IMG/VR virus record: IMGVR_UViG_3300032046_005540
Coordinates: 104,268-168,267 of that record
Origin: a virus
Strand: one strand, 5' to 3'
Length of the DNA stretch: 64,000 nt
Within the stretch, counting starts at the first letter, position 1; every line of letters starts with the position of its first letter. The notes below the pieces were generated by a model that was not told the origin of the DNA, searched no databases, and saw only the letters and a list, made by a program, of their open reading frames with translations. Below are positions 1 to 4,529 of the stretch, one piece after another. Both the position numbers and the translations under genes were made by a program.

Positions 1-621
1 CATTGCAAGTTTTGAAGGAAATTGACCTCCAGTTGTTTGATCTAATTCAGTCATTCCATAAGGAATTCCTTTGTATTTTTCTGGATGTTCTTTTTTATCT
101 AAATATTCTTTCCATCTTATCTCAGGATCTTCATCAAGAAGAAGTCTACGAGTAACTTCATTTGAAGAATCGAATGTTTTAATATTTAAAATCTTTCCAG
201 TAATATCTGACAAAGAATTAGAAATATTTCGGTCATTTGCTAAATCTTCTACCATATCAAAAGCAGTATTGTATAGTTCTCTTTTAATTTCTAATTCTTT
301 CAACTCATCCAAATAAAACCTGAACCCAGAATCATCTACAAATGTTTTTGATAACTCTCCATGTAAAGTTAATAAAGTAAATTGAAGATCAGTAGAAAAC
401 TCTTTTTCATTTCTTTTCAAAAACTTCTCTAAAATATCGTAAGATAAAGTTTTATGATATTTTTCAAAATATCTACTTATTAAGTCAAATAACTTTTTAT
501 GATTTTCATCACAAAATGTTGAAACTTTAATTTTAGAAAGAGTTTCCTCTATATAACTAACATCTTTAAGTAGATATGAAAGAATAGTTTTTTCAACTAC
601 ATTATCATTAAATTTTACCAT
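1..621 (-). CDS. dnaB: DnaB-like replicative helicase, N-terminal part (runs off the window edge)
   Basis: Manual translation from ATG at 621: MVKFNDNVVEKTILSYLLKD...KGIPYGMTELDQTTGGQFPSKLAM; the GIPxGxxxLDxxTGG motif precedes Walker A in DnaB; a DnaC-like gene lies 2 kb upstream. Confidence 0.8.
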   Translation of the reverse strand, partial: MVKFNDNVVEKTILSYLLKDVSYIEETLSKIKVSTFCDENHKKLFDLISRYFEKYHKTLSYDILEKFLKRNEKEFSTDLQFTLLTLHGELSKTFVDDSGFRFYLDELKELEIKRELYNTAFDMVEDLANDRNISNSLSDITGKILNIKTFDSSNEVTRRLLLDEDPEIRWKEYLDKKEHPEKYKGIPYGMTELDQTTGGQFPSKLAM

Positions 622-623
622 AT

Positions 624-1361
624 TTATTCACTTTTTTTAGACTTTGGAAAGTTTACAAAAAATGGCATCGCAACATCAAAAGTAAGTCTTGGATCTTTAA
701 AACTTTTAACTACTTCATAATAAGATTTCAAAGGCATTCCATTCCACTTTTTTTCATTCCACAACTTATTTAACTTTGTACCCTTTGCAGGCCTACAATA
801 CATTGCGTGAACTTGAATAATATTAGGAAGAGACAAAGATTGTTCTAATGATTCTCTAAACTCCTTTATAGCAGTTTCATTATCTGTTACATAAGGTTTT
901 GCTAATATATAAATAATATACTCAAAATTTCTATTTTCACTAACTAACTTTTTTACATCTTCAAAATCAAAACCCTTTCCAATCTCTTTACTTCTATTAG
1001 GAAATACCGTCTCTAAACCAATACAAACTTCCATTTCAATTTCAGGTTTTTCATTTGGAATAAATTCAGGTCTTGATTCTACTCTTAATTTTTTAACGCC
1101 ATTTTCTTTTAAATACTTGATAACATCTCTCCAAGAAACTTGCATTTGTTCTAAATCAAAAAAGGATCCAGAATTAAAAATTCTAAAGTATTCAGGATAC
1201 CCTCCATATGTTTCTTTACATGTTTTGAATTGGTCCCAAATATCTTCAGGAGTTGTTTCTGGATCCGTATCTTTTTTGAATCCACAGAAAATGCATCTAC
1301 CCCATCTACAAGGCTTTACTCTTAAGCAAATTGTATTTTTATCCATCCAAACACATTTCAT
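624..1361 (-). CDS. Radical SAM protein, RaSEA-like (archaeosine biosynthesis)
   Basis: CxxxxCxxC-type cluster motif CRWGRCIFC, plus IFNSGSFFD, VESRPEFI and IGLET as in the RaSEA/TIGR01210 family. Confidence 0.8.
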   Translation of the reverse strand: MKCVWMDKNTICLRVKPCRWGRCIFCGFKKDTDPETTPEDIWDQFKTCKETYGGYPEYFRIFNSGSFFDLEQMQVSWRDVIKYLKENGVKKLRVESRPEFIPNEKPEIEMEVCIGLETVFPNRSKEIGKGFDFEDVKKLVSENRNFEYIIYILAKPYVTDNETAIKEFRESLEQSLSLPNIIQVHAMYCRPAKGTKLNKLWNEKKWNGMPLKSYYEVVKSFKDPRLTFDVAMPFFVNFPKSKKSE

Positions 1362-1506
1362 TCATATCCTCCCTCTCTTCTAATCTCCTCAACTCAATAT
1401 CTATCTCTTTAAGTTTTTTACTTTTTTTATCAAGTTCTTTTTCCAAATGAACAATTTGAAGTTCTAATTGACCTTTCTTTCTTTTCAAACAATTGTAGTC
1501 TTTCAT
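1339..1506 (-). CDS. Small coiled-coil hypothetical protein (55 aa)
   Basis: Manual ORF MKDYNCLKRKKGQLELQIVHLEKELDKK...; ATGA overlap with the upstream stop; fills the gap. Confidence 0.5.
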   Translation of the reverse strand: MKDYNCLKRKKGQLELQIVHLEKELDKKSKKLKEIDIELRRLEEREDMNEMCLDG

Positions 1507-2294
1507 ATTATCCCCTTTATTTTTTCAGCTTCGGTAGGAGTATCAATCCCACACAATTTAATAATTTCTAAAAATGGTTCATACCTATGAAAATTCCTAT
1601 ATTCGTCAAATTTATTAATTGAAAAATACTTTTTACATCTTAAATAAACTTGCCACAAATCCGGATACGAATTATTATATTTAAGAACAAACGGATGTTC
1701 CCAAAATTCTTCAGGAACTACTCCAATAGTAGTAATTACTACTTTATAATATTCGTCTAAATTTTCTATTTTCGCATATATCTCCTTATGAGTTTTTGAA
1801 GTGTTATAAGGTCTTTCAGCAGAACAAGACAAAAGTAAACATTTCTTTTTATCAGTTTTAAAACTACTCATTTGATCTAACAATTCACGAATATACAACC
1901 TATTATAAGAATGGAAACTTGATACCATTATCTTTTTATCTTCAGGTAAAATATCTTTAGTAACCCCTTTCAAATCAACTTGCATTAGAATATCAGAACA
2001 AATAGGAGTAAAAGAAGCAAACATTTCTATTAAATCACGAAGACAACCTTTTTCTTTTGCCCTCTCTATCCAATTCAAAATTTCTTCAATAGAATAAATA
2101 GACCATAATCCATAATTAATATCTTTGTGAACACTTTCTTTTTCAACCTCATGACCAAAATAAATCAAAAACGGAACTTGACTTAATGGTGCGTTCTTTA
2201 CAAACCACTTCTCTTTCAACCCACGAGAAGCAAAAGATTTGAGTGCGGTTCCATTATAAACAAAAGGATATTTTTTAAAATCAACGGTTTTCAT
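1503..2294 (-). CDS. ArcS-like / DUF5591-domain protein (archaeosine synthase-like)
   Basis: LLLSCSAERPYNTSKTH resembles the ArcS LLPCSxxKPYSxSxSH motif, followed by GVVPEE; near the RaSEA-like gene. Confidence 0.7.
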   Translation of the reverse strand: MKTVDFKKYPFVYNGTALKSFASRGLKEKWFVKNAPLSQVPFLIYFGHEVEKESVHKDINYGLWSIYSIEEILNWIERAKEKGCLRDLIEMFASFTPICSDILMQVDLKGVTKDILPEDKKIMVSSFHSYNRLYIRELLDQMSSFKTDKKKCLLLSCSAERPYNTSKTHKEIYAKIENLDEYYKVVITTIGVVPEEFWEHPFVLKYNNSYPDLWQVYLRCKKYFSINKFDEYRNFHRYEPFLEIIKLCGIDTPTEAEKIKGII

Positions 2295-2461
2295 ATTGCC
2301 TTAATAAAAGTTTTTATTGCTTTACAAATTTCACAATGAGTAACAAAAGACTTTGCAGGTTTATTCTTTCTTTTAAATCCTAAAAATTTTCCTCTCCATT
2401 CCGCCACTATATCGATTTTTACATTACCACATTGCTCACATTTGTATGAAATAGCTTTCAT
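2291..2461 (-). CDS. Small zinc-ribbon protein (56 aa)
   Basis: Manual ORF MKAISYKCEQCGN...HCEICKA with two CxxC pairs; GGAGG RBS; ATGA overlap with the next gene. Confidence 0.6.
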   Translation of the reverse strand: MKAISYKCEQCGNVKIDIVAEWRGKFLGFKRKNKPAKSFVTHCEICKAIKTFIKAI

Positions 2462-2462
2462 T

Positions 2463-2777
2463 TTATTTACCTCCTAAATTTTCAAATTCCTCGCAAGCTT
2501 TTTTAAAAACTTCTTTTTTTGTTTTTCTATTATAAATAAAACTTTTACTGCCTAAACATTCTTCTACTTCATTCTCTTCGATTTTTTTAAATATTATAAA
2601 TTCAGGTTCATAATATTTTGAATCTCCTCTACCACACCAAGCAGTTTTTCCACCTACCTTACATAACATACCAATTTCTGTTTCTTTTATAATTTCTACA
2701 TTCGCTCCGAAATCTACCCCAGGCACTTCTATACAATTTTTTCCTTTTTCGTTAGTATATCTTTTTATAGTAGCCAT
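2463..2777 (-). CDS. Hypothetical protein
   Basis: ORF track; tightly packed with neighbours. Confidence 0.7.
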   Translation of the reverse strand: MATIKRYTNEKGKNCIEVPGVDFGANVEIIKETEIGMLCKVGGKTAWCGRGDSKYYEPEFIIFKKIEENEVEECLGSKSFIYNRKTKKEVFKKACEEFENLGGK

Positions 2778-3520
2778 TATTTTTCTCCTAACAATTCTTT
2801 TTTAATATCTTTTAAAATCTCAGGACGAAAACTTTCACCAACTAAAGGAACATTGATCAATCTCTCTGAAAAAATTTCATAAATAGTTTTACCAAAGCCT
2901 TCTAAAACTTTTGAAGGTTCCTTATTAGAAGTTACAATAAATGGTTTTCCCGAATAATACCTTTTCTTAAACAACTCATCTAACAAAGTATCAATCAATT
3001 CTGTTTTATATTTTTTGTCTATTTCATCTACGAGTAAAAAATCCACATCTTCTATAATATAGAAAAGAAATTCTTTTGTTCTCATATCTCTTAATGCGGT
3101 ATGAGCTAAATTTATCAATTCCGAAAGAAGAATAAAATGAGCTTTATATTTTTGAGTCAAAGCCTTTTTCAAAATTGAACATCCAATAAAACTTTTACCA
3201 ACACCATAAGAACCATGAATAAACAAACCAGAACCTGTTTCGACAACTTTAGATAAATTTTCCGAATACTTACCAATAATTTCTAATGAACCGCTATTTT
3301 TATCTAAAAATGGTGAAGTAAAGTATTTAAAATCAAGTTCCAAATCCCAATAACTTCTAGGAATATTTGCATTAAGCATATCTACATAACGCCGAAACTC
3401 ATCAATACAACTACACAATTTAAAACCTTCAGGAGTTAAATAACGACCTTTACCTTCACATTTAGAACAATTGTCTAAAATCTTTATTTTTAATTTTTCT
3501 ACATCTTGAACGGAATACAT
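2777..3520 (-). CDS. dnaC: DnaC/IstB-like helicase loader ATPase
   Basis: N-terminal CxxC...CxC; Walker A GSYGVGKS; Walker B LLVDEID; IVTSN. Confidence 0.85.
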   Translation of the reverse strand: MYSVQDVEKLKIKILDNCSKCEGKGRYLTPEGFKLCSCIDEFRRYVDMLNANIPRSYWDLELDFKYFTSPFLDKNSGSLEIIGKYSENLSKVVETGSGLFIHGSYGVGKSFIGCSILKKALTQKYKAHFILLSELINLAHTALRDMRTKEFLFYIIEDVDFLLVDEIDKKYKTELIDTLLDELFKKRYYSGKPFIVTSNKEPSKVLEGFGKTIYEIFSERLINVPLVGESFRPEILKDIKKELLGEK

Positions 3521-3549
3521 TTATTCCTCTTTACTTTTATCAAAACAGA

Positions 3550-3705
3550 TTAATTACCTTCTTTAATTCCCAGTTCCTTCCATTCTCTTTTTTTCAATAT
3601 ATCACAAGCTTCACCTAAACATAAGTTAAATTTTTCACATATTTGACATATATCCAACCCTTCTTTGAATGCTTTATAAACTTGATCTTCTAATGTCTGT
3701 TCCAT
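3550..3705 (-). CDS. Small HTH-like hypothetical protein
   Basis: Likely start MEQTLE after an AAGGAG RBS; short helical protein. Confidence 0.5.
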   Translation of the reverse strand: MEQTLEDQVYKAFKEGLDICQICEKFNLCLGEACDILKKREWKELGIKEGN

Positions 3706-3716
3706 TTTTATCTCCT

Positions 3717-4259
3717 TTATCTTATAATAACCTTTGTTCCAACCATTACATTTCTCCATACTATTTCTAAATCTATATCCTCTAATCTAATACAACCATG
3801 CGAAACTCTTCCCTGAACTCTTGCTCCTCTAATACCATGAATTCCCACTTCACCTCCTAAATCTAACTTATACTTTCCTAAATGATTCCTTATAATTCTA
3901 CTTGGATCATTAGGTGGAGGAATTGGTTTTCCTTCTTCTATAAATGCCCAATCTGGTTTTCTCCAAATTGGATTTCGAATTTTAGCTACAACCTTTCTTT
4001 CTCCCGAAGGAGTTCCAAATTTCCAAACTTTGTTTCCATATTTAAGAATTTTCCCTGTTCCTATTCCACATTTAGCTTTCCAAATTGTATCAGCATCTAT
4101 TATCAAATATAAAGTCTGAGAGGTCTTATCAATTAATATATAAGTTTTAGTTGAGTCTATTGTTCGGTCATGGTAATCTACTATTCCAACTCCATAACTT
4201 TTTTGGAAGCTAAAAAGTAAACTAAAAATAATAAGACTTAAAAAAATAGTTTTAGACAT
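3717..4259 (-). CDS. L,D-transpeptidase (YkuD family) with signal peptide
   Basis: Hydrophobic N-terminus; TPSG; GIHG...SHGCIRL catalytic motif; VGTKVII terminus. Confidence 0.9.
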   Translation of the reverse strand: MSKTIFLSLIIFSLLFSFQKSYGVGIVDYHDRTIDSTKTYILIDKTSQTLYLIIDADTIWKAKCGIGTGKILKYGNKVWKFGTPSGERKVVAKIRNPIWRKPDWAFIEEGKPIPPPNDPSRIIRNHLGKYKLDLGGEVGIHGIRGARVQGRVSHGCIRLEDIDLEIVWRNVMVGTKVIIR

Positions 4260-4270
4260 AATTCATCTAT

Positions 4271-4378
4271 TCAAGAAAATAACCAATCTATAAATTTACT
4301 AACAAACCACCAAATACCAAAAACCATTAATATACCTATAATAGGAATAAACAAAAGTAATACACCTTTAAATATCAT
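4271..4378 (-). CDS. Small single-TM membrane protein (35 aa)
   Basis: Manual ORF MIFKGVLLLFIPIIGILMVFGIWWFVSKFIDWLFS. Confidence 0.45.
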   Translation of the reverse strand: MIFKGVLLLFIPIIGILMVFGIWWFVSKFIDWLFS

Positions 4379-4529
4379 ATACTTTTCCTTTTCGTTGTTT
4401 TCTTCTTATCAAAAAATACACTAACAAAAATACAATAACAACAGGATTTTGAATACATAACCAAAGAGTAGCTACACAAAGTATAATTGTTAAAAAGATA
4501 TGTAAAAATTTTAAAAATATATTAATCAT
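4368..4529 (-). CDS. Small membrane protein (53 aa) with basic C-terminal tail
   Basis: Manual ORF MINIFLKFLHIFLTIILCVATLWLCIQNPVVIVFLLVYFLIRRKQRKGKVYDI; TAATG overlap with the upstream stop. Confidence 0.5.
   Translation of the reverse strand: MINIFLKFLHIFLTIILCVATLWLCIQNPVVIVFLLVYFLIRRKQRKGKVYDI

Follow-up and report, generated by a model that had tools for sequence, protein, structure and literature searches.

Two neighbouring minus-strand genes at the start of a 64,000-nucleotide stretch of viral DNA (bases 104268-168267 of the 168,267-bp IMG/VR virus record IMGVR_UViG_3300032046_005540; hereafter the window, meaning the whole stretch that was analysed) probably encode a minimal, virus-adapted archaeosine synthase that would act in the final two steps of a phage pathway for 7-deazaguanine DNA modification, a reading to which we assign a probability of about 0.62. 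The record as a whole has a CheckV completeness estimate of 90% and a GC content of ~28%. In window positions, the two genes are:

1503..2294, minus strand: ArcS2-like protein of 263 amino acids (aa), the catalytic C1/DUF5591 core of archaeosine synthase joined to a TGT-barrel remnant
624..1361, minus strand: RaSEA-like radical SAM protein of 245 aa, core only, with a match to TIGR01210

Phage 7-deazaguanine DNA modifications are a leading model of anti-restriction hypermodification, and the published phage scheme for 2'-deoxyarchaeosine (dG+) uses ArcS2 or Gat-QueC alone. Judging from gene content and homology, the modified base that this virus most likely places in its own DNA is archaeosine or something closely related, made by way of a radical enzyme, and protection from host restriction is the likely purpose. 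By curated cut-offs and by architecture the two proteins are neither canonical ArcS nor canonical RaSEA; they are a virus-specific minimal form of both. A stand-alone ArcS core is already known in phages (PMC10516641), and the new element is the RaSEA partner with its DpdA3 context, not the miniaturised ArcS itself. As far as we searched, this partner, its phage-only clade and its association with DpdA3 are undescribed in the literature, and we found no publication joining RaSEA, ArcS and phage.

Family assignment of the two proteins

A reading of the window made from its letters alone (the sequence-only reading) had placed the 263-aa protein in the DUF5591/ArcS family without evident TGT or PUA domains, and profile searches agree. 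The protein matches Pfam DUF5591 at E = 1.3e-8 (35.2 bits, above the gathering cut-off of 26) and, at model positions 208-344 of 575, the NCBIfam ArcS model NF040592 (E = 2.3e-14); profile searches with Pfam and NCBIfam found no TGT or PUA domain in it. Of the canonical four-domain ArcS layout (TGT-like N domain, C1, C2, PUA), only DUF5591/C1 and a partial barrel remnant are present. The canonical C1 signature PC-x3-KPY-x2-S-x2-H reads SC-x3-RPY-x2-S-x2-H in this protein (C, P, Y, S and H kept, P>S and K>R both being conservative substitutions) and PC-x3-RPY-x2-S-x2-H in its close relatives. Across 20 ArcS2-like homologues, including fusion proteins from DPANN archaea, residues C157, P162 and Y163 never vary, and S166 and H169 rarely do.

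Structural modelling led to the same family. In the AlphaFold2 (AF2) model of the ArcS2-like protein (predicted local distance difference test score, pLDDT, 88), residues 136-260 match AF0587 (PDB 2Q07, a DUF5591-PUA protein) with Z 11.7, and residues 1-210 match residues 191-424 of ArcTGT 1IQ8 with Z 7.2 (both VIA-align), from which we read the protein as a TGT-barrel remnant joined to C1. Viral ArcS2, defined as a stand-alone DUF5591 core, is known from the work of Hutinet et al. (2019; 2023, PMC10516641) on Vibrio phage nt-1 and the Sulfolobus virus STSV-2, and the experimentally tested nt-1 ArcS2 is 26% identical to the protein described here (E = 1e-6). The latter carries ~100 extra N-terminal residues compared with nt-1 ArcS2, aligning with ArcTGT from residue 191 onward. 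It has the marks of viral ArcS2, being a stand-alone DUF5591 protein co-encoded with a DpdA-family transglycosylase and preQ0 genes, and it shares with the nt-1 and STSV-2 proteins both this genomic setting and an RPY-type motif.

For the 245-aa protein, the best family is TIGR01210 RaSEA (E = 4.4e-30, model positions 16-244 of 313) and not an unrelated radical SAM family, in line with its earlier description as RaSEA-like. The radical SAM [4Fe-4S] triad is present (C18-x4-C23-x2-C26), and the protein keeps all residues that are invariant or near-invariant across 87 family members, among them S64-G65-S66-F67, E95, R97, G115-L116-E117 and K129. AF2 predicts a radical SAM barrel (pLDDT 96.3) whose nearest structural matches are the radical SAM domains of Elp3 proteins, along with queuine lyase.

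The resemblance to queuine lyase raises the alternative that the radical SAM protein is a QueL-type salvage enzyme that frees preQ1 from queuine and has nothing to do with the DUF5591 gene. The queuine lyase of Clostridium spiroforme (QueL, PDB 6P78) is the sole solved structure matched by sequence (41.7 bits, E = 7.7e-10); it is similar in size and fold (template modelling score, TM, 0.59-0.63), shares the Cx4Cx2C triad within a common PCxWGxCxFC motif as well as the NSGSFF motif, and likewise cleaves a C-N bond on a 7-deazaguanine side chain. It acts, however, on free queuine in salvage and has no DUF5591 partner, whereas the radical SAM gene adjoins a DUF5591 gene in all three phages described below. 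Two bona fide RaSEAs, P0024 and P0027, which at 354 and 362 bits both lie past the TIGR01210 equivalog cut-off, score 90 and 82 bits against the 245-aa protein, double the score of 6P78, which places it nearer to RaSEA; its similarity to QueL is much below its similarity to RaSEA. The PDB, moreover, holds no RaSEA structure that could compete with 6P78, and PDB searches with the two proteins matched no RaSEA or ArcS structure. Finally, preQ0 would be made de novo in this phage, and QueF was not noted among the genes scanned, so that preQ1 would have no visible use. We therefore regard a salvage role as very improbable.

RaSEA is a small family: a search of 1.84 billion representatives yielded 257 matches at E<=1e-3. 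When 51 family members were placed in a tree, all eight phage-type proteins grouped in a single clade (Shimodaira-Hasegawa-like approximate likelihood ratio test, SH-aLRT, 99), separate from a clade of fusion proteins (SH-aLRT 99) and from the canonical archaeal enzymes. A further clade of 310-390 aa proteins (SH-aLRT 100) comes from metagenome loci L062, L078, L081, L087, L090 and L096, which are mixed in GC content (three at 56-57%, three at 37-40%); the fetched stretch contains no DUF5591 gene at these loci.

Pairing and genomic context

Four lines of sequence evidence (phage relatives, metagenome loci, fusions and the phage-only clade) point to the ArcS2-like and RaSEA-like genes as a functional pair. 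The pair is adjacent in three phages, at differing places in each and in every case with DpdA3 and QueC. In IMGVR_UViG_3300032046_006283, both genes are present at 75% and 68% identity, with the pair ~3 kb downstream of an NDK-kinase-DpdA3 block and QueC also encoded. In Ga0209777_10002403 (L019), whose RaSEA-like protein is 42% identical, the order runs QueC, HNH, an open reading frame (ORF), DpdA3-type, RaSEA-like, ArcS2-like, PolA, RecA ... FolE2. Internal order and neighbours thus vary across the three phages, while the adjacency of the pair and its DpdA3/QueC company stay constant.

Beyond these phages, a separate DUF5591 gene, mostly abutting, was found in 36 of 80 RaSEA-family metagenome loci, and the two were fused in a further 5 of 80. 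The fusions are single-chain proteins of 400-450 aa with RaSEA at the N terminus and DUF5591 at the C terminus, the named members coming from Aenigmarchaeota (DPANN) metagenome-assembled genomes (MAGs), and their RaSEA half stops near model position 241 of 313, the same place as the phage protein. They have in common with the phage pair that the two cores stand alone, and differ from it in being a single archaeal chain with the canonical KPY...H motif, in forming a separate clade and in their presumed tRNA substrate. Among 50,697 phage records, megablast of the region gave no match and tblastn of the RaSEA-like protein none at 1e-3. The best 80 matches of the phage-clade alignment in 185,579 species genomes were all archaeal MAGs, none above 36% identity, with no prophage copy of the RaSEA-like gene among them. 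A phage clade is documented for a protein family otherwise seen in archaea.

The sequence-only reading had also remarked that the window holds no dpdA, folE or queCDE gene and had called for a search of the rest of the genome. The remark is true, but only because the window starts short of these genes: FolE2, QueD, QueE and QueC lie 3.4-7.4 kb downstream of the pair (genome 97447-101481), and a DpdA3-type gene follows 17.7 kb downstream. In genome coordinates, the relevant genes are:

101053-101481: QueD, with a CxxxHGH motif
100233-101102: FolE2, 252.7 bits against a cut-off of 215
98603-99274: QueE, 201 bits to a QueE model
98136-98603 (L005:10137-10604): purine-type phosphoribosyltransferase of 155 aa, PF00156 E = 4.5e-22, best NCBIfam models XPRT and HGPRT
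97447-98133: QueC, 150.3 bits on TIGR00364, exactly at the cut-off, and 180 bits in Pfam
86431-87225: DpdA3-type transglycosylase of 264 aa, found by tblastn to named DpdA3s

The predicted gene set thus comprises a full route to preQ0 together with a DNA transglycosylase. The 264-aa ORF has no Pfam or NCBIfam match, and a TGT (PF01702) profile search of the whole genome came back blank; a route without DpdA, considered on the strength of that blank search, was dropped when tblastn showed the ORF to be DpdA3-type. It is 24% identical over 92% of the protein (E = 3e-9) to CGPG_00065 of Cellulophaga phage phiST, which Hutinet et al. 2023 (PMC10516641) named DpdA3, and 23% identical over 84% (E = 2e-7) to the 'DNA guanine transglycosylase' of Flavobacterium phage immuto_2-6A. 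A P-loop kinase and NDK flank the gene. As to the phosphoribosyltransferase, it could recycle the guanine that DpdA sets free or, in the manner of ToyH-type enzymes, add a phosphoribosyl group to a 7-deazaguanine base; a literature search for a phage 7-deazaguanine-linked phosphoribosyltransferase returned nothing relevant.

The same context bears on whether the pair might modify host or phage tRNA, as in archaea, and not DNA. tRNA modification is the ancestral function of both families. The protein, however, has no PUA or other RNA-binding domain, the window has no tRNA genes, no ArcTGT/TGT (PF01702) was found in the genome to put preQ0 into tRNA, and the pair is linked to DpdA3, a member of a DNA enzyme family. 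Furthermore, the genome encodes RecA, a sigma-type factor and a YkuD L,D-transpeptidase, and its polymerase is 30-32% identical to those of large Bacillus phages, which marks it as a virus of bacteria and not archaea; such hosts have tRNAs without preQ0. A tRNA target consequently seems hardly credible to us, and for a bacterial virus with a DNA transglycosylase we predict DNA as the substrate.

Proposed route and alternative chemistries

Family assignment, the preQ0 genes with the DpdA3-type gene, and the adjacency to DpdA3 in relatives support the miniaturised two-step ArcS/RaSEA route that had been suggested from the letters alone. As the gene content suggests, GTP would be converted to preQ0 by FolE2, QueD, QueE and QueC, and the DpdA3-type enzyme would swap guanine in DNA for the deazaguanine base. 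By homology, the ArcS2-like protein would then add an amine donor to the nitrile of preQ0 carried on deoxyribose-5'-phosphate in DNA; the analogy with T. kodakarensis ArcS suggests lysine, through its epsilon-amino group, as that donor. The RaSEA-like protein would cleave the C-N bond of this adduct by radical chemistry, leaving a formamidine and hence dG+ in DNA. Both dG+ as the product and lysine as the relay group are inferred. Since the DpdA3 subfamily is linked to complete replacement of guanine, the genome may be heavily or fully substituted.

Work on the archaeal enzyme lends plausibility to these steps. T. kodakarensis ArcS requires no tRNA shape and takes preQ0 nucleoside 5'-monophosphate as a good substrate while leaving the free base unused (Fujita et al. 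2024, PMC11298593), so that dPreQ0 within DNA could plausibly serve as substrate for an ArcS reduced to its core. The preQ0-Lys adduct, in addition, cannot be exchanged back by ArcTGT (PMC11298593); adduct formation would by the same logic lock the modification in, because the adduct would no longer be a substrate for reverse base exchange, and this would give a reason for a two-step lock. In the euryarchaeal ArcS-RaSEA complex (T. kodakarensis; Yokogawa et al. 2019, as cited in PMC11298593), the same two families stand side by side. Both systems have the Cys triad of the radical SAM protein and, with the P>S and K>R changes noted above for the phage, the C1 signature of ArcS, and they share a predicted chemistry of amine addition to the preQ0 nitrile followed by radical C-N cleavage to the amidine. 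The phage versions are smaller: the ArcS-like protein has 263 aa compared with roughly 575-700 in Euryarchaeota and lacks a complete TGT-like N-domain, C2 and PUA, and the RaSEA-like protein has 245 aa compared with roughly 340 and lacks the Cys-rich tail. The predicted substrate is DNA in the phage, as opposed to tRNA position 15 in the archaeal complex.

Because T. kodakarensis ArcS is efficient on the 5'-P-preQ0 nucleoside, it is also conceivable that the pair acts on a free nucleotide, with the phosphoribosyltransferase, of 6-oxopurine type, making preQ0 5'-monophosphate, ArcS2 and RaSEA finishing it in the pool, and kinases supplying it to the polymerase. The position of the PF00156 gene between QueE and QueC and the P-loop kinase and NDK around DpdA3 fit such a scheme. 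Yet no phage ribonucleotide reductase was found in the genome to make the deoxy form, the Ga0209777_10002403 cluster has the pair without a phosphoribosyltransferase, ArcS has a Km of 433 uM for the nucleotide (PMC11298593), the phosphoribosyltransferase could simply serve guanine recycling after base exchange, and the phage encodes a DpdA3 transglycosylase with linkage to the pair. Pool-level synthesis is in our judgement improbable.

Published data on nt-1 offer a possible place for the radical step in DNA modification. When expressed in E. coli, nt-1 DpdA2 alone gave 926-1607 dPreQ0 per 10^6 nucleotides, whereas with ArcS2 nearly all dPreQ0 was gone and only 4-7 dG+ per 10^6 nucleotides appeared (PMC10516641). 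Consumption of dPreQ0 with so little dG+ fits a missing second step, and a RaSEA partner would offer an explanation for it. Searches of the complete nt-1 and Vibrio phage GR7B genomes recovered DUF5591 in each and a TIGR01210 homologue in neither. The phage studied here has one, and it also differs from nt-1 in having a DpdA3-type transglycosylase and not DpdA2; the text of Hutinet et al. 2023 (PMC10516641) does not contain the word RaSEA. In phages with ArcS2 and without RaSEA (GR7B, MT366760.1, 94-103 kb; L010/L181), the ArcS2 gene sits between two QueC-like genes, and GR7B (vB_VcorM_GR7B) carries, ~6 kb downstream, a radical SAM gene whose annotation is lysine 2,3-aminomutase, an arrangement that may be another way to finish or feed the reaction.

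Several observations weigh against the proposed route. Both proteins score far below the equivalog cut-offs, the ArcS2-like protein with 52.9 bits on NF040592 (cut-off 440) and 48 on NF053620 (cut-off 600), and the RaSEA-like protein with 105 bits on TIGR01210 (cut-off 212.15) and a match that is not full-length. The pair lies 17.7 kb from the DpdA3-type gene in the source genome. DpdA3 has had no success in heterologous tests and its true substrate is not known (PMC10516641). The small yield of dG+ that nt-1 gives without RaSEA also means that dG+ formation does not depend absolutely on the radical step. On the side of the motifs, the signature Lys of KPY is replaced by Arg in every viral copy, the last His of the motif is Trp in the ArcS2-like protein of Ga0209777_10002403 (as in nt-1), and the Cys-rich C-terminal tail of canonical RaSEA (consensus HNCxxCD...CxC) is absent, the chain ending at residue 245.

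These motif changes and the missing tail, together with the long stem of the phage RaSEA-like clade (1.23 substitutions per site), which sets it apart from the tRNA enzymes, would also suit a different product made by the same module, that is, a preQ0-amino-acid amidine, another amine donor or another radical rearrangement, and so a new DNA hypermodification. A precedent exists in STSV-2, whose DNA, despite DpdA and ArcS2, unexpectedly contains dCDG instead of dG+ (PMC10516641). However, the residues invariant across RaSEA and the fusions are all kept; the DPANN fusions, which are tied to tRNA archaeosine by their ArcS-type domains, likewise lack the tail; and nt-1 ArcS2, also of RPY type, yields dG+ (PMC10516641). 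We therefore consider a different product unlikely, if well worth bearing in mind, and favour archaeosine or a near relative as the outcome of the two steps.

In its boldest form, the proposal is that a bacterial virus acquired a pared-down version of the complex that finishes archaeosine in archaeal tRNA and now uses it on DNA. Together with DpdA3 it would replace most or all genomic guanine by archaeosine or a lysine-type amidine adduct, by way of a radical SAM step on 7-deazaguanine carried in DNA, and the RaSEA step would also be the second enzyme that was lacking where ArcS2 alone gave poor dG+ yields; we put this forward only tentatively, at somewhat less than even odds. If true, the phage RaSEA partner would bring into DNA modification a lysine-relay radical mechanism known only for archaeal tRNA. 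The small size of the pair (263 + 245 aa) and the predicted solubility of both proteins suit reconstitution and structural work.

The gene chain around the pair and other features

The DUF5591/ArcS-like and RaSEA-like genes lie on the minus strand between a DnaC-like and a DnaB gene, at the positions where the sequence-only reading had put them. Every gene in the first 8 kb of the window is on the minus strand, in a chain whose stops and starts overlap or abut; the DnaB start, for instance, falls 2 nucleotides past the RaSEA-like stop. No terminator-like site was found in window 1-4500, and promoter and terminator scans gave no signal above chance. The remaining members of the chain, in window positions, are:

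2777..3520, minus strand: DnaC/IstB-like AAA+ helicase loader (PF00308, PF01695; NF005992 E = 4.5e-20)
2463..2777, minus strand: 104-aa ORF in the same overlapping chain, no family match
2291..2461, minus strand: 56-aa four-Cys zinc-ribbon ORF, its stop overlapping the ArcS2-like start
1339..1506, minus strand: 55-aa coiled-coil ORF between the ArcS2-like and RaSEA-like genes, overlapping both
1..621, minus strand: DnaB replicative helicase, N-terminal 207 aa (PF00772, TIGR00665); the full ORF in the genome has 463 aa (L005:15498-16889)

The 55-aa ORF had already been recognised as separating the pair, and to it are now added the 104-aa and 56-aa ORFs between the DnaC-like and ArcS-like genes. 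The 55-aa ORF is only a putative gene; it is not conserved in relatives, and in relative G002 a 70-nucleotide gap separates the pair and the RaSEA-like ORF has an unrelated 56-aa N-terminal extension instead. The 56-aa zinc-ribbon protein is a possible accessory factor, and might substitute for the Cys-rich tail absent from the RaSEA-like protein. A 323-aa ArcS2-like homologue (P0016) carries an N-terminal CxxC...Cx4C extension, with no detectable sequence similarity between this Zn-ribbon extension and the 56-aa protein, the link being positional only. A YkuD-type L,D-transpeptidase domain protein (E = 6e-20) at window 3717-4259 lies inside the replication module, an unusual position, and the domain points to a peptidoglycan-bearing bacterium as host.

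Beyond the window's left edge, downstream and with transcription running the same way, the order is DnaB, a primase zinc-finger protein, a sigma-like protein, QueD, FolE2, RNase HII, QueE, the phosphoribosyltransferase, QueC, DUF366, a HAD phosphatase, dUTPase and a family A polymerase fused to a uracil-DNA-glycosylase-type domain. Low ORF density at genome 20-40 kb was considered as a possible sign of recoding, which was rejected as the cause because giant ORFs lie there. Further features, in genome coordinates, are:

99271-99972 (L005:11272-11973): RNase HII, inside the preQ0 cluster between FolE2 and QueE
96539-97108 (L005:8540-9109): DUF366 protein, Pfam E = 3e-54, PDB 2DDZ (hypothetical protein) E = 1e-25
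92615-95134 (L005:4616-7135): family A DNA polymerase with an N-terminal uracil-DNA-glycosylase-superfamily domain (PF03167, E = 1e-32)
80688-81314 (L008:2689-3315): HD-domain protein of 208 aa in the replication/recombination module

The DUF366 gene stands two genes past queC and is followed by the HAD phosphatase, of BT0820 type, and dUTPase. In the polymerase, the glycosylase-superfamily domain is fused to the exonuclease and polymerase domains. The HD-domain protein is conserved in a related phage; it may be a dNTP hydrolase, in which case it could draw down dGTP.

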